12,950 bases of DNA from Candidatus Woesearchaeota archaeon (GCA_043812195.1 JBDRML010000037.1:1-12950), one strand, 5' to 3'. Numbered from the stretch's first letter, positions 1 to 12,950 are shown. The notes: generated by a model from the letters alone, not told the origin. Numbers and translations are program-made.

Positions 1-78
1 AGCAGGTTCTTTATCAGTTGGTTCTTCTGCAGGTTCTTCAGTGTCTTCTTCTTCATCCATTTTTTCAAATTCATCCAT
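1..78 (-). CDS. partial CDS, N-terminal 26 codons only (MDEFEKMDEEEDTEEPAEEPTDKEPA...), continues beyond window start; unknown acidic protein
   Basis: ATG at 78-76 on the minus strand. A GGAGGTG motif (complement of 86-92) lies 7 nt upstream. The frame stays open to position 1. It is too short to appear in the ORF track. Confidence 0.35.
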   Translation of the reverse strand, partial: MDEFEKMDEEEDTEEPAEEPTDKEPA

Positions 79-171
79 TTAAATGCACCTCCAAAGTGTA
101 CATTTTGAGAGGAAATTCCTTTTATAAAGATTATTGTTCTACAGAAAAAATTGAGTTTATTTATAAAGGGT

Positions 172-1083: not shown

Positions 1084-1110
1084 AGAAAATAAAGAGAAAG
1101 AAAAGATTTA

Positions 1111-1146
1111 AAAAATGTCTTATTTCTTGGCTGGAGGCAAACTATT
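1111..1146. repeat. 36-bp perfect direct repeat, copy 1 (AAAAATGTCTTATTTCTTGGCTGGAGGCAAACTATT)
   Basis: Identical 36/36 to 1841-1876. It lies 2 nt past the stop of the 1149-1472 gene and upstream of dys. Confidence 0.95.
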
Positions 1147-1148
1147 AG

Positions 1149-1472
1149 TTAAGCTACAACTTCTTTTTTAGAAAGTGTTTTTTCTGTTTCTATCTTTGTT
1201 ATAATTTTGTCCATTTTTATTAACTCTTTAACCCATGGGTTTTTTAGGTTTAATTGGAATAGTTTTGCATTTCCTATTTTTCTTGTGTGTTGGACTATCT
1301 CATTTTTAACTAATTTAGGCCATATTTCTAAGAAAGCAGTCCATCCAACATTAGAATTTTTAGCTATTTCGGTCATTGAATAGTCCATGTCTCTAGCTAA
1401 AATTAAAAAATCTAATATCCTAATTAAGGGGTAATTTCCAAAGTATTCTACAAATACACTTTTTTCTTCCAT
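1149..1472 (-). CDS. small winged-helix DNA-binding protein (107 aa), family not assigned
   Basis: ATG-initiated ORF. The segment YSMTEIAKNSNVGWTAFLEIWPKLVKNEIV...RKIGNAKLFQLN resembles an HTH plus wing. A TATA-rich divergent intergenic region lies at 1473-1574. Confidence 0.6.
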   Translation of the reverse strand: MEEKSVFVEYFGNYPLIRILDFLILARDMDYSMTEIAKNSNVGWTAFLEIWPKLVKNEIVQHTRKIGNAKLFQLNLKNPWVKELIKMDKIITKIETEKTLSKKEVVA

Positions 1473-1574
1473 TGTAAAAAAAGAAGATTAAACAAGTATT
1501 TAAACATTTCTATTTTTGATAACTATACTTCATAAATAGAAAACTATAAATATGAGTGCTCCCTTTTAGAGTAT

Positions 1575-1829
1575 ATGGATGAAAAGCTGATTATAAAAAA
1601 ATTTATTGTAAGAAAATTATATAGACACAGGATATGGCTACATAAACATACGAATATTAATAATCTCCAAAAAGGTTTATCTGGTAAATTAAGAGTTTCT
1701 AAAGAAGTTAAAAAAGCTATAGATGATCTTCTAAAAGAACAAATACTTTTGTCTAAACCAACACATTATGGATTAGAAATAAGTTTGAACCCAAAAAAGA
1801 TAAAAGAGATTGAGGATTTAATTGATTAA
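1575..1829 (+). CDS. hypothetical small basic protein (84 aa)
   Basis: ATG at 1575 with TATAAATA at 1545-1552, about 26 nt upstream. No family was recognised. Confidence 0.5.
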   Translation: MDEKLIIKKFIVRKLYRHRIWLHKHTNINNLQKGLSGKLRVSKEVKKAIDDLLKEQILLSKPTHYGLEISLNPKKIKEIEDLID

Positions 1830-1840
1830 TTATAAAAAAG

Positions 1841-1876
1841 AAAAATGTCTTATTTCTTGGCTGGAGGCAAACTATT
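1841..1876. repeat. 36-bp perfect direct repeat, copy 2
   Basis: Identical to 1111-1146. It encodes the last 8 codons plus stop (NSLPPAKK*) of the TrmB-type gene. Confidence 0.95.
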
Positions 1877-2659
1877 CCAAGATGTCTCAAACATTTTCCC
1901 TAAAGTTTGTGCGAAATAAGGTGTATTAACCCATACTCCTACATCATAAGTTGGATGAACATCTTTATCGTCCATCATCATGAACAATACTTCTTTGCCA
2001 TCAACTATGCAGAATCTAGTGTTCATATCATTTAGATTTTTAACTTCTGCTATTTTTGATATATCTTTTATGATATGTTCTGATTCTTTATCGAATGGAG
2101 CTGCTATCCTAATTTTGACACCTTTTTTAGACATTTTCTGTAGTGTTGGAGCTAAGGCTTCAAATTTTCTTAGGATTCCTTTTGATGTTGTAGCTAGAAC
2201 TACAGATTCATTTGCTTTTTTAATCATGTATTCTAAATGTGTGTAAATATTATGTCTTCCTTTTATTGCTCCAGATAAATCAGTTGGTTCTATAAATTCA
2301 ATACCTTGTTTGTGAAGAGTATTAAGTTCATTTATGATATCTCCTGTTGAGAGGTCTTTTAATTTTGTGATGTTTTTTTCAGCATCTTCTTTTATTGACC
2401 TTTTAATTCTTGAAACAACTTCTTTAGGTTCTACTGCTAGGTATTTTATTGGCTTACCTAATTTCATTACTACAAAACCTTTTTTTTCCAAAGTTTCTAA
2501 AACATCATATGCTCTTGATCTTGGAACGTTTCCAATGTCTGAAAGTTCTCCTGCTGTTGATGTTCCTCTTGATAATAGAGCTGTCCAAATTCTAACTTCA
2601 TATAAATTTAAGTTAAAAATTTGCCTTAATTTATTTAAAAATTCTTCTTTTACAATCAT
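1850..2659 (-). CDS. TrmB-family transcriptional regulator (wHTH plus C-terminal TrmB-type domain)
   Basis: LYEVRIWTALLSRGTSTAGELSDIGNVPRSRAYDVLETLEKKGFV is a typical TrmB N-terminal wHTH. I prefer the ATG at 2659 (MIVKEEFLNKL) because GGAGG lies 7 nt upstream. The track start at 2722 is a GTG. Confidence 0.85.
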   Translation of the reverse strand: MIVKEEFLNKLRQIFNLNLYEVRIWTALLSRGTSTAGELSDIGNVPRSRAYDVLETLEKKGFVVMKLGKPIKYLAVEPKEVVSRIKRSIKEDAEKNITKLKDLSTGDIINELNTLHKQGIEFIEPTDLSGAIKGRHNIYTHLEYMIKKANESVVLATTSKGILRKFEALAPTLQKMSKKGVKIRIAAPFDKESEHIIKDISKIAEVKNLNDMNTRFCIVDGKEVLFMMMDDKDVHPTYDVGVWVNTPYFAQTLGKMFETSWNSLPPAKK

Positions 2660-2783
2660 CTTTTTTCCTCCAAGAGATGCCCCCTCTTCTTTACTACCTT
2701 TTGCCTTGAATATTTTTTTCACTGCGGTAGAACATAATCTATTGTGTAATGGTAATTCACTATTATATAAAGATTATTGTGAT

Positions 2784-4631
2784 TTATGAATTAGATTTTT
2801 GTTTTGAAGAAAATTTTTTTTGATTTTTATATATGTGTTCAATATCTTTTAGTGTGTTTAATTCTTTAGTATCTTTATCATTTCTTAATCTGAGAAATCT
2901 TGGGAACCTTAATGCATAACCTGAAGAATAAGTTGGGCTTTTTTGAATTTCTTCATAACCTACTTCAATAACTATTTTTGGTTTTAGAATTGCAACTTTT
3001 CCTTTTTGAATTTCTATTAATGGTTTTAAAATTTTTGTCATTTCTTTGTATGTCATTCCTTCTGATTTTTCTTTTAATCCAGTACTGGCTTTTCCTACTT
3101 CTAATAATTCATTTCCTGATTTGCATGCTAGTGTGTAACTTGTTAGCCACCCTGCTCTTTTTCCTTCTCCGAAATCTGCCGATACAATAGTTAAGTCTAA
3201 TGGTTCAAGAACTGGTTTTAATTTTACCCAGCCTTCTACATATCTACCTGGTTTGTATTCTGCATCTAGTTTTTTACCTATTAAACCTTCAAAACCTTCT
3301 CTTAAAACTTTTTTGTAGAATTTTTCAACTTCTTTAACTGAATCTGAAACTAATTTTTCTGTAAGTTGAACTTTGTATTTTTCTATCTTTATTATTTTTT
3401 CTAATAGTTTTCTTCTTTCTTTGAATGGTTTACCCATTAAGTTTTTTCCATTGTAAAATAAAATATCAAAGGCAAATATTTGAACTGGTAACTTCTTTAT
3501 TGTTTCTTCAATATTGTGTTTTCTTTTGATTCTTTGAGATATAGCTTGAAATGGCATTTGTGTTTTGGTTTTTGGATCATAACCTATAGCTTCTGAGTCT
3601 ATTATGAAAGAATTTCCTTTTATGTGAGTTTTAATATAATTAACAATGTCAGGGAATTGCCTTGTTACATTTTCTAGTCTTCTTGTAAATAATTTTATTT
3701 CATTACCATTTTTGTGTATTTGTAATCTAAAACCATCTATTTTAAAATCGAATAATGCTGGTTTTCCTGTTGATTTAAATGCTTCTTCAATAGTTTCTGA
3801 TTTAATTGCTAACATAGAGTTAATTGGAGTTCCTATTTTAATTTCCTGTCCTATAGATTTTAATCCATGTTTCTTTAAAGATTTAGCAACTTCTGCGAAA
3901 TCGTTTTTAACATCGAATGTTTGTTGGGTTGTTTTAATGAAGTAATTATATATTTCTCTATTTAGTTTTACATCTTCTGAATCTACCAATTTGTATTTTG
4001 TTAGGTCTTTTGATTTGATATCTTCTAGCGATTTTGGTTTTAGAATTGATTTTGTTTCTATATTTTTAGAATTTACTCCTTTGACTCTTGGGAAGTATGT
4101 CCATGTTATTGCGTCTCTTAAAACTCCTGCTGATACTCCAACTCTTAATTGTTCTATTACTGTTCTAATTATGAATTTTGATTCTTCTTCGTTTGCTGAT
4201 GTTAATAATTCTGTGACTAATTGTATTTTTCTATTGACTGTGCCTTGACCTTCTAGTGTTGCTAGTTTTCTTATATTATCAAATACTTTATCTAGTGTTA
4301 ATTTTTTAGAAAATAATGTTGTTTGGGATTTCTTTTTTGTGAGTTCTTTTGCTACTAACCCTAAATCTCCTTTTTTAGCAAATTCTTTTTCTATTTTATC
4401 TGGAGAATCTCCTGTTGCTGATGCTAGAGCTTTGATTGCGTATCTTTCTGAAAATCCTATTTTTCTTTCATCATACGCAGGGAATACTCTTCCTTCTAAC
4501 AAATAAATGACTTGATCTAATTCTGATTCTGGAGTATTTTCTAAAAGTTCTGATATGATATATGTTTTTTCTATTCTTTTTGATGTTTCTTCCAGAGCTT
4601 TGTATGCATTTACTAATTTAGAATATTCCAT
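2784..4631 (-). CDS. lig: ATP-dependent DNA ligase
   Basis: 615 aa. Contains the KIDGFR motif I (adenylation lysine), IIDSEAI, FAFDILF, EGLIGKK and WVKLKP motifs, plus the long N-terminal DNA-binding domain typical of archaeal/eukaryotic ligases. Confidence 0.95.
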   Translation of the reverse strand: MEYSKLVNAYKALEETSKRIEKTYIISELLENTPESELDQVIYLLEGRVFPAYDERKIGFSERYAIKALASATGDSPDKIEKEFAKKGDLGLVAKELTKKKSQTTLFSKKLTLDKVFDNIRKLATLEGQGTVNRKIQLVTELLTSANEEESKFIIRTVIEQLRVGVSAGVLRDAITWTYFPRVKGVNSKNIETKSILKPKSLEDIKSKDLTKYKLVDSEDVKLNREIYNYFIKTTQQTFDVKNDFAEVAKSLKKHGLKSIGQEIKIGTPINSMLAIKSETIEEAFKSTGKPALFDFKIDGFRLQIHKNGNEIKLFTRRLENVTRQFPDIVNYIKTHIKGNSFIIDSEAIGYDPKTKTQMPFQAISQRIKRKHNIEETIKKLPVQIFAFDILFYNGKNLMGKPFKERRKLLEKIIKIEKYKVQLTEKLVSDSVKEVEKFYKKVLREGFEGLIGKKLDAEYKPGRYVEGWVKLKPVLEPLDLTIVSADFGEGKRAGWLTSYTLACKSGNELLEVGKASTGLKEKSEGMTYKEMTKILKPLIEIQKGKVAILKPKIVIEVGYEEIQKSPTYSSGYALRFPRFLRLRNDKDTKELNTLKDIEHIYKNQKKFSSKQKSNS

Positions 4632-4671
4632 GGTAAGTTTTATAAGTTTGGATAGATATAAAGTTTACTAT
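4632..4671. promoter_or_regulatory. 40-bp divergent intergenic region with two interleaved TATA boxes (lig and nitroreductase)
   Basis: TTTATAAG at 4639-4646 lies about 30 nt upstream of the ATG at 4672. TTTATATC on the minus strand (complement of 4653-4660) lies about 26 nt upstream of the lig ATG at 4631. Confidence 0.45.
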
Positions 4672-5205
4672 ATGAAATTTGAGAAAGCTTTGAAAGGAAG
4701 AAGATCTATTAGAAAATTTAAAGAGAAAAAATTGAGTAAGAATTCTTTAGGTTCTATTTTAGATGCTGCGAGATATGCTCCTAGTGCTGGTAACTTACAG
4801 AATTGGAGATTTATTGTTGTTGAAGATGAAAAAACTAAAGAAAAAATTGCTAAGGCTTGTTTAGGTCAAAAATGGATGGTACGAGCTGGAGCTTTAGTTA
4901 TAGCTTGTAGTGATGATAGTGATGTTAAAAGAATTTATGGAAATAAGTCTGATTTTTATGGCAGACAAAATTGCGCTGCTGCTGTTCAAAATATGTTATT
5001 GAAAGCTTATTCTATTGGAATGTCTAGTTGTTGGGTTGGAGCATTTAATGAAGATGATATAAAAAATGCTTTGAAAATTCCTGGCGATATAAAGATAGAA
5101 GCTGTTTTGTGTTTTGGACATTCTGATGAGAAACCTAATATGCCTAAAAGAACTGATTTGAGAAATTTGGTTCATTTTGAAGAATGGGGCAATATGATGA
5201 AGTAA
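4672..5205 (+). CDS. nitroreductase-family oxidoreductase
   Basis: MKFEKALKGRRSIRKF...ARYAPSAGNLQNWRF is a typical nitroreductase N-terminus. The track start at 4555 would overlap lig by 77 nt, so the ATG at 4672 is preferred. Confidence 0.85.
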   Translation: MKFEKALKGRRSIRKFKEKKLSKNSLGSILDAARYAPSAGNLQNWRFIVVEDEKTKEKIAKACLGQKWMVRAGALVIACSDDSDVKRIYGNKSDFYGRQNCAAAVQNMLLKAYSIGMSSCWVGAFNEDDIKNALKIPGDIKIEAVLCFGHSDEKPNMPKRTDLRNLVHFEEWGNMMK

Positions 5206-6510
5206 TTATTCTGGAACTTTGTATATTGCTGAATCTATGCACGGGCCTGCTCCAACTGAAAAGAAATTTAGAACATTTCTTGGATGAATAGTAAAATCTG
5301 GCATATCTCCCTTTAAAACATCATCTAACAAAACTGGTATAGTTGCGACTGATGAGTTTCCGCGCCATGATATATTCATTGGTGTTTTTCTTTTGATTAC
5401 CTCTTTTGGAAGACCTAATCCTTCCTCTCCAAGAATTTCTGAATCTAAATAATAATTTGCTTGGTGTGCAAAAATTAAATCTATTTGCTCTTTGGTTAAG
5501 TCAGCTCTTTCTAAGCTTTCTCTGATAATTCCGGGAACATTATTAACTGCATACCTAAATAACATATTTCCTTTCATTTTTAAAAATAGATGTTCTTTGT
5601 TGGGATAGTTAGGATTACTAGATTTTCCTAAAGTAAGATATTCCCCGAATTCTGAATCTGTTCTGCTTGCATGAGATAAAATACCTTCTTTAGTTTCTCC
5701 TTTTCTGGCTTCTACCTTTACAAATCCTCCCTTATCTGCATATATCATTCTGTCTGGATCAGCTGGGTCGCTTACATCTGATAAGGTTTCTACTGCACCA
5801 GTCCCTATTTCTTTTGCTAATCCTGCTTGAATAGTATAATGTGAGAATATTAATAATTCTAGCCACCCAGGACAGCCAGATAATAAATCAAAACAAATTA
5901 GATTTGGATTTTCAATACCTGCTTTTTTCTTTACTCTTTCAGCCATGCTCTCTCTTTCATGCACAACAATTAAATAATCAAGACCTTCTGGAATATTTCT
6001 ATCTCTCTCTGATTGAGGAATAATGTATGCTTTCTTGTCATTACTTGCAAAAACCTCTTTGGCAAAATTGTACCAATTCTTATTAGCAATTACATCATAA
6101 GCAACTGTTGGAGTAGCAGAAAGTCTATCTGCTTGCATTTCTCTGAAAACTATTTGAGAAGCAATTGATGGAAGCCAATTTATTTCAGGAGTTCCAAATT
6201 TACAATCTCCAAAATCATGTGCAATACCAAAACAATCCCATAAACTAAAATTATCACCTGAATTTATTACTGCTTCAGCTCCTAAGTCTGATGCAACCTT
6301 TCCTTCTAATTTATATTCTCTTTCTTTTATTCCAGTTCTTTTATATAATTTTTCTACTCTTTTTTCAGGAGTTTTTGGATCTAGTTTATATCCCTCTCCT
6401 GATATATTTCTAATATAAAAGATACTATCATTGAAATCCTTGTTTTTAACAATTCTTCCAGGATTAGATTTTCCTGTTGCAGTTATTATAGTATTTGTAT
6501 ACTTAGGCAT
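5206..6510 (-). CDS. FabH-like (KAS III / thiolase-superfamily) condensing enzyme with extended N-terminal half
   Basis: CFDLLSGCPGW (Cys213), FAHQAN (His349) and RGNSSVATIP (Asn385) have Cys-His and His-Asn spacings close to those of FabH. IYADKGG resembles the FGDGAGA loop. Confidence 0.8.
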   Translation of the reverse strand: MPKYTNTIITATGKSNPGRIVKNKDFNDSIFYIRNISGEGYKLDPKTPEKRVEKLYKRTGIKEREYKLEGKVASDLGAEAVINSGDNFSLWDCFGIAHDFGDCKFGTPEINWLPSIASQIVFREMQADRLSATPTVAYDVIANKNWYNFAKEVFASNDKKAYIIPQSERDRNIPEGLDYLIVVHERESMAERVKKKAGIENPNLICFDLLSGCPGWLELLIFSHYTIQAGLAKEIGTGAVETLSDVSDPADPDRMIYADKGGFVKVEARKGETKEGILSHASRTDSEFGEYLTLGKSSNPNYPNKEHLFLKMKGNMLFRYAVNNVPGIIRESLERADLTKEQIDLIFAHQANYYLDSEILGEEGLGLPKEVIKRKTPMNISWRGNSSVATIPVLLDDVLKGDMPDFTIHPRNVLNFFSVGAGPCIDSAIYKVPE

Positions 6511-6574
6511 TTAAATTGAGAGTTTTGAATAGTTTATATATTTTATCTTATCAAAAAGTTTTGTAAAAATTAAA

Positions 6575-6600
6575 GGAAAAAGAAGATCACCTCTTTTTCC
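6575..6600 (-). terminator. hairpin (9-bp stem, 8-nt loop containing GATCACC) followed on the minus strand by a T-rich tract
   Basis: 6575-6583 GGAAAAAGA pairs with 6592-6600 TCTTTTTCC. It lies downstream of ftsZ, after the first hairpin. Confidence 0.4.
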
Positions 6601-6609
6601 CAAAAAAAT

Positions 6610-6662
6610 AAGTGAATGAGCGACGGCTTTGGGGGGTTAAAGAATGTTCAACTCATTCACTT
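6610..6662 (-). terminator. ftsZ 3-prime hairpin (11-bp perfect stem, 31-nt GC-rich loop) followed by T7 on the minus strand
   Basis: 6610-6620 AAGTGAATGAG pairs with 6652-6662 CTCATTCACTT. The ftsZ stop codon (6657-6659) lies inside the stem. The minus-strand transcript continues ATTTTTTTG. Confidence 0.5.
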
Positions 6663-7736
6663 GAGCATGTCAATTCCCAGTTCTCTTTCCATTCTAACTG
6701 ATTCTTGTATTTTCTCTTTTAATCTATCTACTTTCCCTAGAACGTAAGGAGAGGTAACTCCTGTAATTATAGTCATTACACGTATTTTACCATCCATACC
6801 TGGTTCTATTCTAGCACCCCAAATAACATTTGCATCTGGGTCTAGGGATTTTGTAACCATTTCTCCTATTTTATTTATATCATCTAATAACATGTCTTCT
6901 CCACCTGTAACATGTATTAATGCGCCTGTTGCACCCTCATAATTAATTTCAAGCAATGGGTTTGTTAGAGCTCTATGAACTGCTTCTTCTACTCTTCCTG
7001 CAGTATTAGATTCTCCTATACCTATAGCAGATACGCCACCATCTGACATGATTGCTTTTACATCTGCGTAATCTAGATTAACTAAGCTTGGTACAGCAAT
7101 AATTTCAACGATTCCTTTAATCATTGTTGAAATTAACTCGTTTGCTACTGCAAATGCTTGTTTTATAGGTAAATTTCCAGCTAGATTCACTAACCTGTTA
7201 TTATCTATAACTATTACAGTGTCACAAACTTGTCTTAATTGTTGTAGGCCGAATTCAGCTTTGTCTACTCTTGCTTTTTCTATATTGAAAGGCATTGTTA
7301 CTGTTCCTATAACTATGGCTCCTTGCTCTTTAGCAATTTGAGCAACTATTGGTGCAGATCCAGTTCCTGTTCCTCCACCCATTCCTGCGCAAATAAATAC
7401 CATATCAGCTTTGCTGACAACTTCCTTTAGCTCAGAAATATTTTCTTTAGCAGAATCTCTTCCTTTGTCTAAAAATCCACCACAACCTAGACCTCTTGTT
7501 AATTCTCTTCCGATTAAGATTTTATGATCTGAAGAAGAAATATCTAAGTGTTGTTTGTCTGTGTTAACAGCAGTAATCTCTGCTCCTTTAACTCCTTTCT
7601 TGTATAACCAAGAAACCATATTATTTCCTGCACCACCCAAGCCTAGAACTTTTATTTTAGCTTGACCGATGTTTAGGTCCTCATAATTTGTGTCTTGTTC
7701 TACATTTTTCAATGCATCTTGTATGATAAATTCCAT
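6657..7736 (-). CDS. ftsZ: cell division GTPase FtsZ
   Basis: GLGGAGNN and the [10 protein letters not shown] tubulin/FtsZ signature, with length and domain order typical of FtsZ. Confidence 0.97.
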
Positions 7737-7812
7737 TTTTTTCTTAAGCCCCCTTTTGCTTTTTTATATTTTACACCACAATAATTTTTATATAGGTGCT
7801 TTATTATTATTT

Positions 7813-7847
7813 CCTCTAGAAAAAGTTACTGATCGCCAAATTAGAGG
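7813..7847. other. hairpin presenting GATCGCCAAA in its loop (copy 1)
   Basis: CCTCTA at 7813-7818 pairs with TAGAGG at 7842-7847. The loop contains GATCGCCAAA at 7831-7840. It is followed by CTTTTTC, and TAAGACCAATT lies at 7869-7879. Confidence 0.4.
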
Positions 7848-7898
7848 CTTTTTCAAGATAAAACTAACTAAGACCAATTGAGAATACATGTACGTTTA

Positions 7899-7926
7899 TC
7901 ATTTCAGATCGCCAAAAATGAAATGA
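7899..7926. other. hairpin presenting GATCGCCAAA in its loop (copy 2)
   Basis: TCATTTCA at 7899-7906 pairs with TGAAATGA at 7919-7926 (8/8). The loop at 7907-7918 is GATCGCCAAAAA. TAAGACCTATT follows at 7932-7942. Confidence 0.45.
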
Positions 7927-8007
7927 AGTGTTAAGACCTATTTCTATTTTATTATAGTATCATATATAAAGATTTTTGAACTAGAAAGTATATTTTTAAG
8001 GATATAA

Positions 8008-8388
8008 TCAACTTTGATATTCCACTAAAACCCTTGTTTTACTTGATTTTTCTTTATTATAATCAAAAGGATATTTATGAATGCGATATAAATTATTTTT
8101 AAAATAGATATTTGTTGATTCTAAATTAGATAATGTTGGTATATCAAAATCGCAGTTTTCTAAAACTATTTCTGTTAATGGCTTTGATGGGTAAAAATCA
8201 CTTATTATGCTTTTTCCCAATCTATGAATTTGAACTGAAAATGTAATATCTTTTGGAGATACACTAATCTGGCTTCCTTTTTCAGCAATGTCTGGTAAAT
8301 CTACTGATGAACAAATACCAAATTTTTCATTTAATTTTAACTGGCCTCTGTATAAGAGATCTCGTAGTGTGATTCTATTTTTTCTCAT
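8008..8388 (-). CDS. hypothetical protein (126 aa)
   Basis: ATG ORF with TTTATAAA (minus strand) about 30 nt upstream in 8389-8435. No family was recognised. Confidence 0.5.
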   Translation of the reverse strand: MRKNRITLRDLLYRGQLKLNEKFGICSSVDLPDIAEKGSQISVSPKDITFSVQIHRLGKSIISDFYPSKPLTEIVLENCDFDIPTLSNLESTNIYFKNNLYRIHKYPFDYNKEKSSKTRVLVEYQS

Positions 8389-8435
8389 GATTTTGAGCCG
8401 TTTAATTGAGTTTATAAAGAATTCTATTTTAATAA

Positions 8436-8708
8436 TTATAAGCCAAAAGACTCTTCAAAGATTTTCATTTCTCTTATTTTTTGAATAAATTGATGTCCTT
8501 TTTCTGTTATTGCTATGAAGTCTTTGTCTTTTACTTTTGTTCTTTGTATGAAATTTTTTTCTATTAAACCTTGTAAATAATTATTCATCTGAGTATGTGA
8601 TAAGTTTGCTTTATACATTAGATGGGTTGGTTTAATTTCTCCTTTCTTCTCTTGAATTGAGACTAGAATATCGTTAATTATGTCTAGTCTGCTTCTTTTT
8701 CTTTCCAT
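8436..8708 (-). CDS. small archaeal winged-helix regulator (COG3432/HTH_45-like, from memory)
   Basis: [11 protein letters not shown]...[30 protein letters not shown]...ITEKGHQFI matches the pattern of small archaeal wHTH regulators. Confidence 0.7.
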
Positions 8709-9396
8709 GGTATAAAACTCTTATTAAGACTTGCAATAATAAAATATAACCTACTAATTGAACTACTTCAGCTATAACATAAACTAAAGGATTTAATATT
8801 ATGAACATAAAGAAAGCCTGACTAATTGCTATGATGCTAAACCCGTATGCTAAGTATTTTGTGTTTTTGTTTCCAGTTTGTGAGTAGATATTAAAGTATC
8901 TAGATGCTATGAATACAAGGAAGATTATTGATGTTATGTGGAATATGTAATATAATGTTGAACTGTATAAAGCTGATACTATTGATAATACTATAATGAA
9001 GTATATTGTTAAAAATACAGTAGGTATTTTCTGGCCTCTTTTAATACTATATAATACATAGAGGCCTGCTAGATTAGCTAGAACAAATATTAGGAAACTT
9101 GAAATTGCTAGTATGTTGAAACTTCTTACAACTTCTAGTGTTTGTATAACTGCACCTGTTGGAGTGTTAGCTTTTATTGATTCATAATATACTGTAACAT
9201 TTGTGACCATTTTGAATAAGAATGATGCTGCGATTAAATAGAATGCAAATCCTAATTTCATATAGTTTTTATTATTGTTTAATTTGTAGTATCTAGTAGC
9301 TACTGTTGCTATGCTAAAAAGTACGAGAATTGTGATTAGGTCAATGAAAATTGATACTAAATAGAACCATTTAGGACCGAATGCTATCTCTATCAT
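8674..9396 (-). CDS. polytopic integral membrane protein (about 7 hydrophobic segments), unknown function
   Basis: 240-aa ORF made of repeated long hydrophobic stretches with a Lys-rich tail. Its 3-prime end overlaps the downstream wHTH gene by 35 nt. Confidence 0.65.
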
Positions 9397-9409
9397 TAGT
9401 TAGGGGAGA

Positions 9410-9631
9410 GTGGTATCGTTTAAAAATCTTATGATTTGGAATTTAGTAAGTATTTTTCATAGGGTATTTATAAATGGCTTTTTAAGATTTAGTAAAGAGG
9501 TGATGGCAATATCAAAAAATAAAATAAGATCGATATTAAGAAGGGTCATTCCTTTAGAAGATTATGAGATTGAGTATTTTAAACATTTATTTTATAAGAG
9601 TGTTATAAGTGAGCGCTGGACTCGGAAGTGA
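9410..9631 (+). CDS. doubtful small ORF (track start is GTG; alternative ATG at 9503 gives 42 aa)
   Basis: TTTATAAA at 9467-9474 would place a transcript start near the ATG at 9503. The 3-prime end (9600-9631) resembles a cassette junction module rather than typical coding sequence. Confidence 0.2.
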   Translation: MVSFKNLMIWNLVSIFHRVFINGFLRFSKEVMAISKNKIRSILRRVIPLEDYEIEYFKHLFYKSVISERWTRK

Positions 9632-9742
9632 TTATTTTAAAATTTTATTAGTTTCTAAGTACCAAAGATATATTTTATTTTGCTGTTCAAAACCTTTAAA
9701 AAGGTCTATTTTCTAGGTTTTAAGAAGTTTATGTTATGAAAA

Positions 9743-10156
9743 ATGGTAAATGGAATTGATACAACTGCTAGTGAAGATATAAGTGTTGGTGGAAAGGATA
9801 TCACTTGTCCTAGATGTAAAGAATCTACTAATATGTTGTGGAGTGTTGATATTGAATATACTTGTAGCACGAAAAGAAGAAGAGTTTGTAAGAAGTGTAG
9901 AGATGAATTATTAGAAGAGATAGAAGAGGTTTTAGAAGTTGGTGGTGATCTTAAATCAGAAATTAAGGATCAAAAAGTTATAGAGGATATTACTTGTCCT
10001 GGTTGTGGAGAAGGAGCAACTTGTCCTTGTGTTATGCATAGTATTTCTGTGACTAAGGATTTTGAGGGCAAAAAGATGATGAAAGATTCTGATAAGTTTG
10101 TAATGTTTAAGAAAGAGGATTTTGATAAGTTTAAGGCTGATTTGTTTGGTGGTTAA
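9743..10156 (+). CDS. Cys-rich zinc-ribbon-type protein (137 aa) with duplicated DITCPxC motif
   Basis: CPRC...CKKC and CPGCGEGATCPC motifs. The stop codon lies inside a TTGGTGGTTAA motif that resembles the junction-module head. Confidence 0.7.
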   Translation: MVNGIDTTASEDISVGGKDITCPRCKESTNMLWSVDIEYTCSTKRRRVCKKCRDELLEEIEEVLEVGGDLKSEIKDQKVIEDITCPGCGEGATCPCVMHSISVTKDFEGKKMMKDSDKFVMFKKEDFDKFKADLFGG

Positions 10157-10200
10157 TCACTGTTAAATCCGCCGAGGGCGTAGCCCGAGGAACGGAGAAG
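10157..10200 (+). repeat. junction module M1 (GTTAAAT..CCGAG, mini-hairpin GGGC-GTA-GCCC at 10176-10186, tail GAACGGAGAAG at 10190-10200)
   Basis: GC-rich island in AT-rich DNA. The 11-nt tail is identical to 10564-10574. The GTTAA..CCGAG..CGTAG core aligns with M2. Confidence 0.75.
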
Positions 10201-10213
10201 TTTGAGTTTTGCC

Positions 10214-10228
10214 GATAGAATTATATAC
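10214..10228 (+). promoter_or_regulatory. BRE/TATA-like promoter of the cassette A gene
   Basis: GATAGAA followed by TTATATAC at 10221-10228. The TATA starts 29 nt upstream of the ATG at 10250, consistent with a leaderless mRNA. Confidence 0.5.
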
Positions 10229-10249
10229 TTGAATTAATTAACTTAATTC

Positions 10250-10429
10250 ATGGTAATTACACGACCTAGAATTTGGTATGTTTGTAATAAATGTGGAGAA
10301 TGGTTTTGTTATCCTAAAAACCCTCCAAAAAAATGTCCTGATTGTAAAAAAGGAGATTTAACCAAAACATGCGCTTTCTGTGGTGAAAAATTCGAGGAGT
10401 GTAAATGTTCCAAAAGAAGAATTGGATAA
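10250..10429 (+). CDS. 59-aa zinc-ribbon mini-protein (MVITRPRIWYVCNKCGEWFCYPKNPPKKCPDCKKGDLTKTCAFCGEKFEECKCSKRRIG)
   Basis: Translated by hand; it falls below the track length cutoff. Contains CxxC at C12/C15, C29/C32 and C41/C44, plus CKC. A further CxxCG..F..CKC unit continues in another frame to 10478. Confidence 0.55.
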   Translation: MVITRPRIWYVCNKCGEWFCYPKNPPKKCPDCKKGDLTKTCAFCGEKFEECKCSKRRIG

Positions 10430-10491
10430 GAAATGTCATAACTGTGGATTCTTTAAAGCAAATTGTAAATGTGAATAAGGCAAAACTCAAA

Positions 10492-10574
10492 TTGAATATA
10501 ATTGGTGTTAATTGCCCCGAGCCGTAGGCGTTAGCACTCTGTCAAGGTCGTAGTGAAAAGCGTGAACGGAGAAG
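10492..10574 (+). repeat. junction module M2 (head TTGAATATAATTGGTGTTA, CCCCGA + GCC-GTA-GGC at 10521-10529, tail GAACGGAGAAG at 10564-10574)
   Basis: The head is 17/19 identical to the M3 head. The core aligns with M1. It is GC-rich relative to its surroundings. Confidence 0.8.
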
Positions 10575-10982
10575 TTCCCACGGGCATCAAACATCTTTTC
10601 TATAGAAAGATATTTATATAATAGGATATTATTGTATTTTCATGTGGCATGGCATGTTTCATACAATCGATGAAGAGAAAGATTGGCACAGCACGTTTGA
10701 TCCGTGCACTGAAGATGAGCTTATGTGGTTGGATCGTGTTGCTCAATTATTGGGTATTGAGGAAACTCCTTCTTATAAATCAAATATACCTATTGATTGC
10801 CCTGTAACTGGTACAGTGATTTCTGCAATTGACAATTGTTTTGATCTTGCACAAGACCGTTTAGGATTTAAGAATTCGTGCCCATATGCTAAACGGGGTC
10901 TTTATGAACGCAACACCAAAGACTTGATAGGTGTTGTGTGTAGCTATAAAGGTAGAACTTGTGAAGATAATGCCCGTGGGAA
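10575..10982 (+). mobile_element. cassette B: single gene enclosed by a perfect 13-bp inverted repeat
   Basis: 10575-10587 TTCCCACGGGCAT is the exact reverse complement of 10970-10982 ATGCCCGTGGGAA. The right arm encodes the last codons of the cargo ORF. Confidence 0.5.
10602..10620 (+). promoter_or_regulatory. BRE/TATA-like promoter of the cassette B gene
   Basis: ATAGAAAGATA followed by TTTATATA at 10613-10620. The TATA starts 29 nt upstream of the ATG at 10642. An imperfect palindrome ATCTTTTCTATAGAAAGAT lies at 10592-10610. Confidence 0.5.
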
Positions 10983-10986
10983 TTGA
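10642..10986 (+). CDS. hypothetical Cys/Trp-containing protein (114 aa), no family recognised
   Basis: ATG ORF with leaderless TATA spacing. It is visibly more GC-rich than the core genes. Confidence 0.65.
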   Translation: MWHGMFHTIDEEKDWHSTFDPCTEDELMWLDRVAQLLGIEETPSYKSNIPIDCPVTGTVISAIDNCFDLAQDRLGFKNSCPYAKRGLYERNTKDLIGVVCSYKGRTCEDNARGN

Positions 10987-11045
10987 ACTTAATTGGTGTT
11001 ATACGAGGCGAGGACAAAGTCCGAGAGTGCAACGTCCCTTTAGCG
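10983..11045 (+). repeat. junction module M3 (head TTGAACTTAATTGGTGTTA, CGA + GGAC-AAA-GTCC at 11012-11022)
   Basis: The head matches M2. The CGA plus triloop hairpin sits at the equivalent position. The stem sequence differs from M1 and M2 but remains complementary. Confidence 0.75.
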
Positions 11046-11069
11046 TTTGAGAGTGTGCCGTTCATTATT

Positions 11070-12008
11070 TTAAAAAGTGGGGCGATTATACTTTACTACT
11101 TTGGCTATCATTTGTTTTAATTCTTTAGAATTAGGCCAATCTGGCAGGATATCTAAATCATGTTTAATGGAGTAAAAATCTAACCTCTTATCTAAATTTT
11201 GAAAATTAAATAGTTCTGGATAAAATTCCTGAAACCAATCTAAAAGATGAGCGTAATCCTCTTTTTTAGCGAATTTTTCAAATTCTTCGGACATATATTT
11301 TTTTGGATGCTCAACCATTTTCTTTATTACACTTAGAGTAAAATCAATAGATGACAATTCTGTTCTTTCAAAATCCAAAATTCCTACAATCTTTGTATCT
11401 TGAATCAGTATGTTATCAAAATGCACGTCCCAGTAAACTAAGGCTATTTTTTGCTCTTTTAGAACATTATGGTTGTTGTTTATAAATTTCTTGATACTTT
11501 GTATAAACTCAAATGATAGCAGTTTCTTTTGCTCAATCTTTTTCAAGGAATTTTGGATTTGGTTGAGTATCTTATCATGCCAATTATCCGAAGAATTTAC
11601 TTTAAATTTTTCTAGAAATTTATCAGATGGCGATTTGTTGATGATTATTAAAACTTTGCAGAGTTGCTTAATAATGTTTTTTCTCTTGTCATTGCTCAAC
11701 AAATGCCATTTTGAATAAAGAGTGTCACCCTTGATTTTTGGATAAATCATGAATAATTTGCCATAAGTCTTTTTGGAATTATCAAAAACTTTGATTTTAG
11801 GAGATGGAATTTTATTCTTGAAAAAATTATAAAAAAATACTTCTCTTTCAAATTTTTCTTCATTATCCTCATCTTCACAAACTTTGAGAATAAATTTATC
11901 GTTAATTGAATAAACTTTGTTTGTGAAGCCTATTTCAATTTTTTTAATATATTTTACTTCTCCTAAATTATTCTGAAGAAAAATTTGTTTTATGATTTTT
12001 TCATCCAT
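11070..12008 (-). CDS. APH/choline-kinase-family phosphotransferase (aminoglycoside phosphotransferase-like fold)
   Basis: GFTNKVY loop, ILKV lysine, VHFDNILI (HxDxxxxN catalytic loop) and ILDFE (metal-binding Asp). Family recognition is from memory. Confidence 0.85.
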   Translation of the reverse strand: MDEKIIKQIFLQNNLGEVKYIKKIEIGFTNKVYSINDKFILKVCEDEDNEEKFEREVFFYNFFKNKIPSPKIKVFDNSKKTYGKLFMIYPKIKGDTLYSKWHLLSNDKRKNIIKQLCKVLIIINKSPSDKFLEKFKVNSSDNWHDKILNQIQNSLKKIEQKKLLSFEFIQSIKKFINNNHNVLKEQKIALVYWDVHFDNILIQDTKIVGILDFERTELSSIDFTLSVIKKMVEHPKKYMSEEFEKFAKKEDYAHLLDWFQEFYPELFNFQNLDKRLDFYSIKHDLDILPDWPNSKELKQMIAKVVKYNRPTF

Positions 12009-12030
12009 AATGATTGATAAGATGTTAGGT

Positions 12031-12038
12031 TATATAAA
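12031..12038 (-). promoter_or_regulatory. TATA box of the cassette C gene
   Basis: The minus strand reads TTTATATA starting 30 nt upstream of the ATG at 12008, the same spacing seen in cassettes A and B. Confidence 0.5.
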
Positions 12039-12079
12039 TTTAGCCCCACTTTTTTGTATCGTTGAGGCACACTCTCAAA

Positions 12080-12120
12080 TGTCGTATAACGGTTGTTAGT
12101 TTCTCCAAGCTTTGCGAGGA
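12080..12120 (+). repeat. junction module M4a (diverged head TGTCGTATAACGGTTGTTA, tail GCGAGGA)
   Basis: It follows right arm C in the same way that M2 and M3 follow their arms. The head matches the M2 head at 11/19, including TATAA and TGTTA. Confidence 0.55.
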
Positions 12121-12159
12121 TTGATTTTTAGTGTAACGATGCCGAAGGCAAAAAATCAA
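12121..12159. repeat. cargo-less arm pair (empty hairpin) related to the cassette A arms
   Basis: TTGATTTTT at 12121-12129 pairs with AAAAATCAA at 12151-12159. TGCC at 12140-12143 pairs with GGCA at 12147-12150 around a GAA triloop. A 10-nt bulge AGTGTAACGA sits between the two stems. GGCAAAAAATCAAA resembles right arm A, GGCAAAACTCAAA. Confidence 0.6.
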
Positions 12160-12161
12160 AG

Positions 12162-12176
12162 TTTGAGAGCCCGAGC
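12162..12176 (+). repeat. candidate left arm of cassette D (TTTGAGAGCCCGAGC); partner expected beyond window end
   Basis: It shares GTTTGAGAG with the verified left arm of cassette C and sits in the equivalent position. No partner can be seen in the window. Confidence 0.35.
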
Positions 12177-12189
12177 TTCTTATAAGTAC

Positions 12190-12202
12190 TCTGCGAAGCA
12201 GA
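12190..12202. other. GAA-triloop mini-hairpin TCTGC-GAA-GCAGA
   Basis: 5-bp perfect stem, GAA loop, C-G closing pair. It is the same type as the hairpins in the junction modules. Confidence 0.5.
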
Positions 12203-12256
12203 CAATATTTTAGGGGTGCCCGCCGTTTTAGTTCTTAATCTGAAAGTAGTAACACA

Positions 12257-12273
12257 ATAGAAAGATTTATAAA
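12257..12273 (+). promoter_or_regulatory. BRE/TATA-like promoter of the last gene
   Basis: ATAGAAAGA followed by TTTATAAA at 12266-12273, 43 nt upstream of the ATG at 12309. It is nearly identical to the cassette B promoter. Confidence 0.45.
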
Positions 12274-12308: not shown

Positions 12309-12950
12309 ATGTTTTACGATCCTTTACAAAGAAGATTGAAACAGATGGAGGGTGAGAATCCTTCGCTAAATAAGCATCCGCAAGGATTTTGGAAAGGTTT
12401 CAGAGAGAGATCTTATTTCTCGAAAAGATTTTTATCTGGGATAGTTGAGACCATTCCACAATTTACTCATCGTTATGGTTCTAATGCTGATCGAATTTTT
12501 GATTATAAAAAAGGATTTGAAAATGTAGGTTATCCTGAACAAACAGTGAATTGGTTAGAAGAAGCATTAAAAGATATTATTGTATCTGGTGAGATAAGAA
12601 GCAGAGTAGAAAAAGACTTAGAAATAGCAAGAAAACATGCGTATAATTCTGGAGTGAAATTAAGGGAAGTGGATGTTAACGGCATACTTGGTTTGCATGA
12701 AACAGACATGAGAACTTCCGGGTATAAGTACGTTCCAGGATGGCTGAACAAAGCAATTGCATACATTGAACTAGCAGAAGAGAAAAGGGGCGATGCAGAA
12801 TTGTATTCATTAGCAAGAGAATATTTAGAGGAGTCATTGATTGTTTTGAAAAAAGTAGAAGAAGAACAAAGAGAACTTGAAGGAGTTATTCAAACAATGT
12901 TAGACTCTTGTCAACCAAGAAAAAAAGATTTGACTTTTTCTCAAGCGTAA
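12309..12950 (+). CDS. hypothetical protein (213 aa), no family recognised; the stop codon is the last triplet of the window
   Basis: Complete ATG..TAA ORF. It is visibly more GC-rich than the core genes, and its C-terminal part looks helical and charged. Confidence 0.65.
   Translation: MFYDPLQRRLKQMEGENPSLNKHPQGFWKGFRERSYFSKRFLSGIVETIPQFTHRYGSNADRIFDYKKGFENVGYPEQTVNWLEEALKDIIVSGEIRSRVEKDLEIARKHAYNSGVKLREVDVNGILGLHETDMRTSGYKYVPGWLNKAIAYIELAEEKRGDAELYSLAREYLEESLIVLKKVEEEQRELEGVIQTMLDSCQPRKKDLTFSQA

Follow-up and report, generated by a model that had tools for sequence, protein, structure and literature searches.

Dif-Like Junctions with Conserved Mini-Hairpins in a Gene-Cassette Array of a DPANN Archaeon

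Introduction

Several described systems collect or resolve DNA through tyrosine recombinases of the Xer type. The archaeal chromosomal dif site, which is used by XerA for dimer resolution, consists of two imperfect inverted arms of about 11 bp separated by a 6-bp spacer and is found once per chromosome in the replication-termination region. The experimentally validated dif of Pyrococcus abyssi is ATTGGATATAATCGGCCTTATATCTAAA (PMC2958812), and an arrangement of xerA and dif as a module is known in some archaea (PMC5357621). IMEX elements carry no integrase of their own and sit in tandem at a dif-type site, each bounded by dif-like sites with one conserved arm plus central region and one divergent arm (PMC5357621). 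Acinetobacter plasmid pdif modules appear to be comparable, being gene modules of a few hundred bp to a few kb bounded by 28-bp Xer sites which are used by host recombinases.

Integrons depend on IntI, a Xer relative with a specific additional domain, and on attC sites, which are contiguous hairpins of 57-141 nt of the form R''(RYYYAAC)-L''...L'-R'(GTTRRRY). The start of each integron cassette is complementary to its own 3' site and not to that of its neighbor. Integron cassette arrays lacking their integrase (CALINs) were reported in Woesearchaeales and Pacearchaeales MAGs (PMC9668308).

In this work, a stretch of 12,950 nt from a Candidatus Woesearchaeota archaeon (GCA_043812195.1 JBDRML010000037.1:1-12950, hereafter the window) was analyzed. 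An initial annotation had described GC-rich islands with a shared head, a C-(G/A)NA-G triloop mini-hairpin and a tail, and had proposed that the module is recognized as a folded strand, either as a DNA recombination site or as an RNA. The islands are the junctions of a gene-cassette array. Related loci from metagenome contigs, denoted by L and a number, were compared with the window.

Results

Organization of the Array

The window contains 9.5 kb of housekeeping genes followed by junctions M0 to M4 and their cassettes (table 1), and it ends inside the array. Heads, tails, and C-GNA-G mini-hairpins were all confirmed, about 12 times more often than chance. In detail, four C-GNA-G hairpins with at least 3 bp are located in 9581-12260, whereas local-composition shuffles give 0.32 and only 0.2% of the shuffles reach four. 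The tail GAACGGAGAAG occurs twice, with 0.00 copies expected by chance. The generic core TAANNNNTGTTA occurs four times on the + strand, always at junctions, whereas 1.5 are expected for both strands of the whole window. The heads at 10492-10510 and 10983-11001 match in 17/19 positions, and a diverged copy is located at 12080-12098.

In a few points the initial annotation had to be corrected. The supposedly related TTGGTGGTTAA at 10146-10156 had been aligned in the wrong register. It is the left arm of M1, where the true core is TAATCACTGTTA (10154-10165). The degenerate junction M0, the cassette-specific perfect inverted repeats (IRs), and the dif-like nature of the head had been missed. Moreover, the AAA loop of M3 is GAA in the homologous cassette of L180.

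Table 1. Features of the cassette array in the window. A slash marks the module end or a homology start.
Feature	Coordinates	Strand	Description	Basis
Junction M0, degenerate, probable left end of the array	9586-9628	+	Left arm TTTATTTTATAA 9586-9597; 5-nt spacer GAGTG 9598-9602; right arm TTATAAGTGAG 9603-9613; short GC module ending GGAAG/T	Read from sequence; resembles M3 (GTGTTATA..GGAC..CGGAAG); spacer one base short
Cassette 1 payload	9743-10156	+	137-aa protein with four CxxC motifs (zinc-ribbon-like); stop codon inside the left arm of M1	Only weak zinc-ribbon Pfam hits
Junction M1 head (dif-like)	10145-10173	+	Left arm TTTGGTGGTTAA 10145-10156; spacer TCACTG 10157-10162; right arm TTAAATCCGCC 10163-10173	
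M1 GC module	10174-10200	+	Mini-hairpin GGGC-GTA-GCCC 10176-10186; tail GAACGGAGAAG 10190-10200	
IRa	10201-10213	+	TTTGAGTTTTGCC; first 13 nt of the cassette 2 payload unit	Perfect complement of 10479-10491
Cassette 2 payload	10250-10429	+	59-aa zinc-ribbon protein; TATA-like ttatata about 25 nt upstream	
IRa'	10479-10491	+	GGCAAAACTCAAA	Partner of IRa
Junction M2 head	10491-10518	+	Left arm ATTGAATATAA; spacer TTGGTG; right arm TTAATTGCCCC	Left arm compared with P. abyssi dif (PMC2958812)
M2 GC module	10519-10574	+	Mini-hairpin GCC-GTA-GGC 10521-10529; AGTGAAAAGCG motif; tail GAACGGAGAAG 10564-10574	
IRb	10575-10587	+	TTCCCACGGGCAT	Perfect complement of 10970-10982
Cassette 3 payload	10642-10986	+	114-aa protein; TATA-like tttatata about 27 nt upstream; 3' end overlaps IRb' and the first bases of the M3 left arm	No family match
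IRb'	10970-10982	+	ATGCCCGTGGGAA	
Junction M3 head	10982-11009	+	Left arm ATTGAACTTAA; spacer TTGGTG; right arm TTATACGAGGC	Homology with L180 starts exactly at TG/TTATACGAGG
M3 GC module	11010-11045	+	Mini-hairpin GGAC-AAA-GTCC 11012-11022; conserved AGTGCAACG 11026-11034; ends TTTAGCG/T	
IRc	11046-11059	+	TTTGAGAGTGTGCC	Perfect complement of 12066-12079
Cassette 4 payload	11070-12008	-	312-aa APH-type phosphotransferase with its own TATA-like box	PF01636, 3.9e-15; same cassette (82% aa identity, 83% nt identity) in metagenome contig L180 behind a different left arm
IRc'	12066-12079	+	GGCACACTCTCAAA	
Junction M4 head	12079-12106	+	Left arm ATGTCGTATAA; spacer CGGTTG; right arm TTAGTTTCTCC	Left arm TCGTATAA is the exact complement of TTATACGA, the right arm that opens the same cassette at 10999-11006
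M4 GC module, widespread "P1" type	12107-12161	+	Stem TTGATTTTT with AAAAATCAA, enclosing an unpaired AGTGTAACGA and mini-hairpin TGCC-GAA-GGCA 12140-12150; ends AAAG/T	Covariance model hit 12118-12162, 71.9 bits
Start of cassette 5	12162-12202	+	IRd TTTGAGAGCCCGAGC 12162-12176 (partner beyond the window); hairpin TCTGC-GAA-GCAGA 12190-12202, containing an exact GCGAAGC at 12193-12199	Same start follows P1 in L128, L184, and L146
Cassette 5 payload	12309-12950	+	213-aa protein	No family match

The family is widespread. Arrays occur in Woese-/Pacearchaeota genomes and in at least 120 metagenome contigs, although the metagenome loci were selected by an exact 20-mer and some of them come from related populations. 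No match was found in IMG/VR viral contigs. Some of the IR-flanked "payloads" carry housekeeping genes, such as a class I tRNA synthetase.

The Heads Are Dif-Like Sites

The heads of M2, M3, and M4, as well as those of L062, show an 11-6-11 layout. The left arm ATTGAATATAA of M2, which is followed by TTGGTG and TTA, matches the P. abyssi dif left arm ATTGGATATAA in 10 of 11 bases. In L134 and L183 the left arms match TTGGATATAA exactly (ATTGGATATAA arms), and a comparable head in L062 is ATTGAATATAATCGATGTTATATTCTCC. Arm pairs are formed by GAATATAA and TTATATTC in L062, and by TCGTATAA and TTATACGA between the two ends of one window cassette. Right arms, however, are poorly conserved. Arm positions 4-7 vary between copies but covary within a cassette. 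Unlike a chromosomal dif, which is a single site, at least five sites are found within 2.6 kb of the window.

Structure of the GC Modules

A covariance model built on the module found 112 copies, in which 93% of the cells are paired. Compensatory changes were confirmed in the mini-hairpin and its enclosing stem, as 11 of 13 pairs show double-sided changes, 0 of 500 shuffles reach the observed values, and the slid controls are far lower. It should be noted that this alignment was fitted to the model. Wobble pairs and GNA loops occur on one strand only (GNA 43 versus TNC 3). The loops are GNA triloops closed by C-G, as in d(GCGAAGC)-type DNA mini-hairpins, and an exact GCGAAGC occurs in the window and in several relatives, but here they are embedded in a conserved junction module.

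These results support the folded-strand proposal of the initial annotation. They could also be read as a family of structured noncoding RNAs, or of RNA processing or insulator elements, transcribed from the + strand, in which the long-range repeats would form RNA stems enclosing each mRNA and the resemblance to dif would be incidental. In favor of this are the covariation with G-U-type wobble on one strand only and the strong conservation of the unpaired AGTGCAACG, and GC-rich islands in AT-rich archaea may often be RNA genes. Nevertheless, no Rfam 15 match was found near the islands at E<=10 in the window, or at E<=1 in the four related loci L179, L062, L129, and L218, and ARAGORN found no tRNA or tmRNA. 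GNRA tetraloops are few (5) and UUCG (TTCG) is absent, a repertoire typical of DNA mini-hairpins and not of RNA. Flanking genes point in either direction, often converging on the module, and therefore transcription across payloads in a consistent direction is unlikely. Furthermore, the RNA reading does not explain the homology breakpoints at the head spacer or the xerA linkage, and thus seems unlikely. The choice between DNA and RNA is not settled, since DNA is favored only by the loop repertoire and by the inconsistent orientation of the neighboring genes.

Complementarity within Cassettes and Compound Junctions

Each cassette carries its own inverted repeats, which in the window are 13-14 nt long and perfect in three cassettes, and its starting right arm pairs with its ending left arm. 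The repeats were found in 20 of 53 junctions versus 0.85% in controls. The arm rule holds perfectly (8/8) in 15 of 25 foreign cassettes versus 3% of permuted pairs, across seven arm types. An inverted second copy of the core is present in 21 of 78 cases versus 1.5% in controls, in more than 10 covarying types. In these compound junctions, the two inverted dif-like halves are roughly 85-130 nt apart and show TAAC...GTTA pairing with an extrahelical 2-nt bulge.

Cognate "circular" junctions fold with z = -4.7, -3.2, and -7.3, whereas array-context junctions give -0.5, +0.4, and -2.4. In the simple heads of this window, however, folding puts the spacer in a 6-nt loop, which is not a known tyrosine-recombinase substrate.

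In compound junctions, the site to the right of a payload has its spacer in the inverted orientation (TAA-CA(TC)nnnA-TTA), and many payloads are therefore bounded by inversely oriented sites. As payload genes occur on either strand, and inverted flanking sites would by themselves make the inner arms complementary, the sites might serve mainly to invert segments, as in shufflons or invertons, or to build mosaics like the Acinetobacter pdif modules. This is doubtful, because successive heads are direct repeats in the window, L062, L067, and L112, which predicts excision and not inversion. In addition, identical short units recur in tandem in different contexts, and complementarity extends 9-14 nt beyond the arms into cassette-specific sequence.

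Homology Breakpoints

Homology breakpoints between near-identical contigs fall at the head spacer. Repeated units in L062 swap partners at the spacer, and the homology between the window and L180 starts there as well (table 1). L218 and L234 are 99.6% identical over 3.1 kb, starting at TAA/CATCGG, and the homology of L170 and L203 ends at the left arm. There is a single case, that is, L207 and L234 (100% identity over 420 bp), in which the breakpoint ends at AAAGT, at the module/IR boundary and not at the spacer. Mini-hairpin variants are also not strictly linked to payloads. A second exchange point, or homologous exchange inside the conserved module, is therefore possible.

The latter breakpoint, together with payload units bounded by perfect inverted repeats and conserved sequence outside them, would also fit miniature transposon-like or REP/BIME-like palindromic repeats, moved by an unidentified transposase, with the cassette-specific repeats as terminal inverted repeats. 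This seems improbable. The repeats differ between cassettes, whereas a transposase needs conserved ends, and no target-site duplications were seen. No transposase was noticed in the array-bearing loci whose ORF lists were read, or among the few ORFs submitted to family searches. Finally, the conserved sequence is a tyrosine-recombinase-type core with linked xerA.

Linkage with xerA

No xerA or integrase lies in the window itself. In 9 of the 120 related loci, a diverged xerA lies 0.7-10 kb downstream of the array on the same strand. The nine proteins share only 32-69% identity, so they come from separate lineages. Scores against NCBIfam NF040815 for four representatives are 213-239 bits with a cut-off of 220 (three of four above it), and the best solved-structure match is P. 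abyssi XerA (4A8E, 4e-44). In the loci read, a left arm followed by CAnnnn sits roughly 100-200 nt upstream of xerA.

The linked recombinases fall below the integron-integrase cut-off (TIGR02249, 184-215 versus 265 bits) and match IntI4 (2A3V) only in two pieces around the missing IntI-specific insertion. This bears on the possibility that the array is an ordinary CALIN, with canonical attC sites served by an IntI encoded elsewhere, as reported for some Nanoarchaeota. The pairing and 2-nt bulge of the compound junctions and the own-cassette complementarity, which mirrors the R''/R' rule, are in its favor. However, published archaeal attCs are contiguous 60-90-nt hairpins of the form RYYYAAC..GTTRRRY, for example ACATAACAAATCATTCAACCGG...CCGGTTAATTCATGGTTATGG. 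Judged from sequence and folding, without IntegronFinder, the window junctions have no such hairpin and lack RYYYAAC/GTTRRRY pairs, and their partner sequences lie 0.3-1 kb apart. Compound junctions in relatives are attC-like only in outline. A canonical CALIN is thus very improbable.

Discussion

The best reading, held with moderate confidence, is that the islands are the junctions of a tandem array of small, self-promoted gene cassettes at a fixed chromosomal locus of an AT-rich DPANN archaeon, probably recombined by the host XerA at dif-like sites. Each junction opens with a 28-bp dif-like core, that is, a conserved left arm ATTGAAnnTAA, a 6-bp spacer TnnnTG, and a variable right arm TTAnnnnC, followed by a GC-rich module of GNA-triloop hairpins ending in (G/A)AG/T. 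A cassette runs from the right arm through the module, the IR, a payload with its own TATA box on either strand, and the partner repeat IR' to the left arm. The crossover core is the head and not the mini-hairpin, which is an accessory side branch.

As for the mechanism, it is inferred, in the absence of any experiment, that XerA exchanges strands in or at the edge of the spacer. Cassettes would then integrate, excise, and shuffle like IMEX elements at a xerA-linked dif site. As the two arms and the two IRs of a cassette are mutually complementary, an excised or unwound cassette strand could fold its junction into one long imperfect hairpin, with the GC mini-hairpins as side branches on one strand. 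That would be an attC- or CTX-attP-like substrate. In many relatives the inverted second copy of the core would rebuild, inside that hairpin, a double-stranded dif-like site with a 2-nt bulge. The single-stranded form and the role of the modules are likewise inferred.

Compared with IMEX elements, these cassettes are similarly devoid of an integrase and arranged in tandem, and in compound junctions the two halves can fold into a hairpin with a bulged central region, which seems to parallel the single-stranded CTXphi attP (Val et al. 2005). They differ in their archaeal host with a single recombinase, in their units, which are single-gene cassettes of 0.1-4 kb and not phages or islands, and in their GC-rich modules and cassette-specific repeats. 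As in integrons, the arrays consist mostly of single-gene cassettes, the site could fold into an imperfect hairpin with extrahelical bases on one strand and AAC/GTT-type triplets next to the crossover (TAAC...TG/TTA), and in 9 of the 120 related loci the recombinase gene is adjacent to the array. On the other hand, this gene lies downstream in the same orientation and not divergent, and the crossover point would lie deep inside the hairpin, so that about 60-100 nt (right arm, module, and IR), rather than 6 nt, are carried to the 5' end of the cassette. Cassettes also have their own TATA boxes and occur in either orientation. The pdif modules seem to share the alternating site orientation of the compound junctions and the existence of very short "empty" modules, whereas the present locus is chromosomal and archaeal, with one recombinase, direct repeats in this window, extra structured modules, and long-range cassette-specific repeats.

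Nothing similar was found in Rfam or in the papers searched, and the array looks like a previously undescribed, integron-like way of collecting genes in archaea. A further reading, which remains tentative and rather unlikely, is that DPANN archaea possess a gene-capture platform that needs no dedicated integrase, in which the housekeeping XerA recombines folded single-stranded hairpin sites built from two inverted dif halves, cassette-specific closing stems, and GNA-triloop side branches. If so, this is a living intermediate, or an independent parallel, between Xer/dif chromosome resolution and the IntI/attC system.

Genomic Context of the Cassette Array

The window has a G+C content of about 31%, and its first part encodes archaeal housekeeping proteins, that is, deoxyhypusine synthase, ATP-dependent DNA ligase, FtsZ and TrmB-type regulators. 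From about position 9586 onward the picture changes, and short ORFs with their own TATA-like boxes alternate with GC-rich islands. The ORFs correspond to two zinc-ribbon proteins (ORF1 and ORF2), a 114-aa orphan (ORF3), an APH-type phosphotransferase on the opposite strand and a 213-aa orphan. The coordinates of the features are listed in the table.

Coordinates of features in the window and in related loci (L numbers). In sequence motifs here and in the text, a slash inside a motif marks a boundary.
Feature	Source	Coordinates	Strand	Remark
Region encoding housekeeping proteins	window	1-9400
36-nt perfect direct repeat, first copy	window	1111-1146		AAAAATGTCTTATTTCTTGGCTGGAGGCAAACTATT; just downstream of the stop of gene 1149-1472
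Gene	window	1149-1472	-
36-nt perfect direct repeat, second copy	window	1841-1876		AAAAATGTCTTATTTCTTGGCTGGAGGCAAACTATT; covers the last codons and stop of the TrmB-like gene
TrmB-like gene	window	1850-2722	-
ftsZ	window	6657-7736	-
73-aa GTG-start ORF	window	9410-9631	+	runs across M0; no family match
Region of the C-GNA-G hairpin count	window	9581-12260
Degenerate fifth junction (M0)	window	9586-9628
CPxC-encoding repeats	window	9795-9823 / 9984-10012
CPxC-encoding repeats	window	9995-10016 / 10334-10355
Left arm	window	10146-10156		TTGGTGGTTAA
Core overlapping this left arm	window	10154-10165		TAATCACTGTTA
Inverted repeat of ORF2, left / right	window	10201-10213 / 10479-10491
TATA-like box	window	10222-10229
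Inverted repeat of ORF3, left / right	window	10575-10587 / 10970-10982
TATA-like box	window	10610-10617
Inverted repeat of APH, left / right	window	11046-11059 / 12066-12079
TATA-like box	window	about 12030	-
P1 module	window	12118-12161
TATA-like box	window	about 12263
ftsZ	L011			5' fragment running off the contig end; head about 0.8 kb away
ftsZ	L182	3-467
ORF of 1002 aa	L199	520-3525		directly beside a P1 junction
ORF of 1026 aa	L223	4876-7953		directly beside a P1 junction
Conserved ~170-nt segment (example)	L177	2700-2880
Conserved ~170-nt segment (example)	L199	300-440

The TATA-like box (ttatata, tttatata or tttataaa) is located about 24-40 nt upstream of four of the five payload start codons, whereas ORF1 has only tttatgtta. 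The cassettes look self-promoted and probably leaderless, unlike promoterless integron cassettes. The two zinc-ribbon proteins share CPxC-encoding repeats, both within ORF1 and between ORF1 and ORF2 (82-83% identity over 22-29 nt), and therefore neighboring cassettes carry paralogous small zinc-ribbon genes. The 73-aa ORF that crosses the degenerate first junction is probably not a gene. In the housekeeping part, the two copies of the 36-nt direct repeat lie 730 nt apart and could be a duplicated gene end or a shared terminator.

The ftsZ gene lies within about 2 kb of the array in three different genomes, that is, in the window and in the loci L011 and L182, which suggests a fixed chromosomal locus. 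In other loci, a class I (Trp/Tyr) tRNA synthetase and xerA lie on the far side, and this represents conserved synteny around the array.

Architecture of the Junctions

All elements reported in the initial annotation, namely the heads, the tails and the mini-hairpins, are found where they had been placed. In detail, the tail GAACGGAGAAG occurs twice against 0.00 expected, and the generic core TAANNNNTGTTA occurs four times on the + strand, in all cases at junctions. Four C-GNA-G hairpins of at least 3 bp are present in the region examined, against 0.32 expected, and only 0.2% of the shuffles reach four. There is a single error of register, as TTGGTGGTTAA, which had been listed as a related head, is a left arm, and the core at this position is TAATCACTGTTA. 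In addition, the degenerate fifth junction lies outside the range that had been annotated.

Each of the payloads ORF2, ORF3 and APH is bracketed by its own perfect inverted repeat, a feature that had been missed. The left repeat always starts right after ...AG/T and the right repeat always ends right before TTGAA..TAA.

The head of the junctions is a dif-like site. Written as 11-6-11, the heads read ATTGAATATAA TTGGTG TTAATTGCCCC, ATTGAACTTAA TTGGTG TTATACGAGGC and ATGTCGTATAA CGGTTG TTAGTTTCTCC, and an example of the double-stranded head is ATTGAATATAATTGGTGTTAATTGCCCC. In relatives, the head is ATTGAATATAA TCGATG TTATATTCTCC, whose arms are inverted repeats. The dif site which is bound and recombined by the XerA of P. 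abyssi is ATTGGATATAA TCGGCC TTATATCTAAA (PMC2958812), and some relatives carry exactly TTGGATATAA as the left arm. The right arms are poorly conserved.

Distribution of the Family

An exact scan of one genome per species with the head motif gave mostly chance hits, and this applies to most of the 119 genome hits. For instance, the hit in Methanosphaera (L055) lies in what reads as ordinary, probably coding, sequence and is a chance match rather than the dif of that organism. The scan also revealed arrays in MAGs of Woesearchaeota and Pacearchaeota, with up to nine heads per 3 kb, and the module called P1 in the window is shared almost base for base with these arrays. L062, a 3,076-bp contig of 34% G+C labelled as a Bacteroidota MAG, consists almost entirely of junctions. 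It has nine heads and repeated 105-120-bp "empty" cassettes with 33-35-nt payloads, and it is probably a DPANN fragment placed in the wrong bin.

Concerning a viral origin, the P1 module is absent from IMG/VR, and the five viral head hits look like chance. In the literature searched, which was incomplete and is thus no proof of novelty, no description of dif-like cassette arrays in archaea was found.

The payloads observed include kinases, glycosyltransferases, GmrSD-type defence genes and many small zinc-ribbon proteins. Of the two large ORFs beside P1 junctions in L199 and L223, the protein of L199, the only one submitted to Pfam, has a GmrSD N-terminal restriction-endonuclease domain, and a defence gene thus occurs as cassette payload. 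Some segments flanked by inverted repeats, however, carry housekeeping genes. In many loci, a conserved segment of ~170 nt (TCGTGAGCCATATTAATTTTAAAGAGGACAC...GCTTCTTTTTTTCTAAAAAAGAAGAT) follows AAAG/ downstream of P1. It is present in at least 15 contigs and ends in an AT-rich hairpin, after which the contigs diverge, and it may be a further junction type or a terminator.

Position of the Recombination Breakpoints

In L062, two short units recur two and three times in different contexts, and their boundaries lie in the head spacer. The left arm travels with the upstream payload, whereas the right arm plus module travels with the downstream payload. The APH cassette of the window recurs at 83% identity in the metagenome contig L180, where homology begins at TG/TTATACGAGG, behind a different left arm and spacer. 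Similarly, the contigs L218 and L234 are 99.6% identical over 3.1 kb starting at TAA/CATCGG, and the contigs L170 and L203 diverge right after the left arm. A canonical attC with its crossover at the G/TT following the tail was also considered, but the repeated units of L062 and the comparison of the window with L180 place the exchange at the head spacer instead. There is a single pair, that is, L207 and L234, which is 100% identical for 420 bp and diverges at AAAGT/, the boundary of the module and the inverted repeat. This could be a second exchange point, or exchange within the highly conserved module. Among the contigs retrieved, the search for pairs of empty and occupied sites gave only two ambiguous cases, neither of which was clean.

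Pairing Rules and Folding

Three pairing rules were examined. First, the reverse complement of at least 9 nt after the AAAG/ of P1 recurs downstream, directly followed by a left arm, in 20 of 53 deduplicated junctions, compared with 0.85% with swapped probes. Second, the right arm opening a cassette is the complement of the left arm closing it, 0.4-4.3 kb away, in 15 of 25 cases (perfect 8/8, across seven arm types), compared with 3% of permuted pairs, and the APH cassette of the window obeys this rule (TTATACGA and TCGTATAA). Third, in "compound" junctions, an inverted copy of spacer+TTAA lies roughly 85-130 nt upstream of the forward copy in 21 of 78 cases, compared with 1.5% in the control. 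The compound junctions have a constant 2-nt bulge and more than ten covarying spacer types, and when folded, this rebuilds a double-stranded dif-like core. In simple heads, on the other hand, folding would put the spacer in a loop. Moreover, many payloads in relatives are bounded by inversely oriented sites, which predicts inversion.

A covariance model of the P1 core, consisting of a 9-bp stem, a 10-nt bulge (AGTGCAACGA) and the mini-hairpin, found 112 copies in 80 sources. Of their cells, 93% are paired and 11 of 13 pairs show changes on both sides. None of 500 shuffles reaches the observed values and the slid controls are far lower, although the alignment is fitted to the model.

Among 464 distinct hairpins in 121 junction regions, GNA triloops outnumber their complements 43 to 3, and most of them are closed by C-G. 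GNRA tetraloops are rare (5), TTCG is absent, and wobble pairs occur on the same strand. Thus, one strand folds, and the loop repertoire is that of stable DNA mini-hairpins, whereas the single-stranded DNA form is treated as an inference. Folded as DNA, the junction that each window cassette would have after circularization (for the APH cassette, GGCACACTCTCAAATGTCGTATAACGGTTGTTATACGAGGCGAGG...TTTGAGAGTGTGCC) is far more stable than shuffles (z -4.7, -3.2, -7.3), but the junctions as they stand in the array are not (z -0.5, +0.4, -2.4).

The possibility that the islands are known RNA elements found no support. ARAGORN detected no split or intron-containing tRNA and no tmRNA. The comparison with Rfam, which covered group I/II introns, ribozymes and C/D RNAs, gave no relevant hits in the window or in four related loci. 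Bulge-helix-bulge processing stems around each ORF were rejected, as by-eye pairing of tail and head gives a continuous stem without the 3-4-3 motif. The resemblance of GAGCCGTAGGC to domain V of group II introns is due to chance, since this sequence forms no hairpin.

The Linked Recombinase

Nine of the 120 metagenome loci (713 kb in all) encode a tyrosine recombinase of 264-292 aa. Of the four representatives which were scored, three reach the NCBIfam XerA equivalog cut-off and one falls just under it, while all four stay below the integron-integrase cut-off. For the one submitted to the structure search, the closest solved relative is the XerA of P. abyssi. In all nine loci, the gene lies downstream of the array on the same strand, and as the proteins share only 32-69% identity, the linkage is old and repeated. 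In the loci read, a final left arm followed by CAnnnn lies roughly 100-200 nt upstream of xerA. For comparison, it is estimated that a random 713 kb of about 1-Mb genomes should hold fewer than one xerA. Modules of xerA/dif are known in some archaea, and in the XerS and XerH systems (PMC5357621).

Interpretation

The simplest account is an array of IMEX-like mini-cassettes at what is inferred to be a xerA-linked dif site, with a junction architecture that converges on integron attC logic. The features that point this way are the own-cassette complementarity, an imperfect hairpin with bulged bases, one active strand, and TAAC...TG/TTA next to the crossover. Nevertheless, it is not a canonical integron, as the enzyme lacks the IntI insertion, the window junctions are not contiguous attC hairpins, and published archaeal attCs look different. 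The GC-rich mini-hairpins of the initial annotation are real, conserved and covarying, but they are side branches between the right arm and the closing repeat of the cassette and not the crossover site. Candidate roles for them are strand choice, accessory-protein binding, or nucleation of folding.

The core motif together with the covariance model supplies a searchable signature for finding hypervariable regions in archaeal metagenomes. The family shows dif-like double-stranded cores and attC-like folded versions side by side, and the finding makes testable the open question of how integron attC/IntI recombination arose from Xer/dif. The DPANN archaea are episymbionts with about 1-Mb genomes and few recognizable mobile elements, and if XerA moves these cassettes, such streamlined organisms have a general platform for shuffling accessory genes at the chromosome-resolution site.
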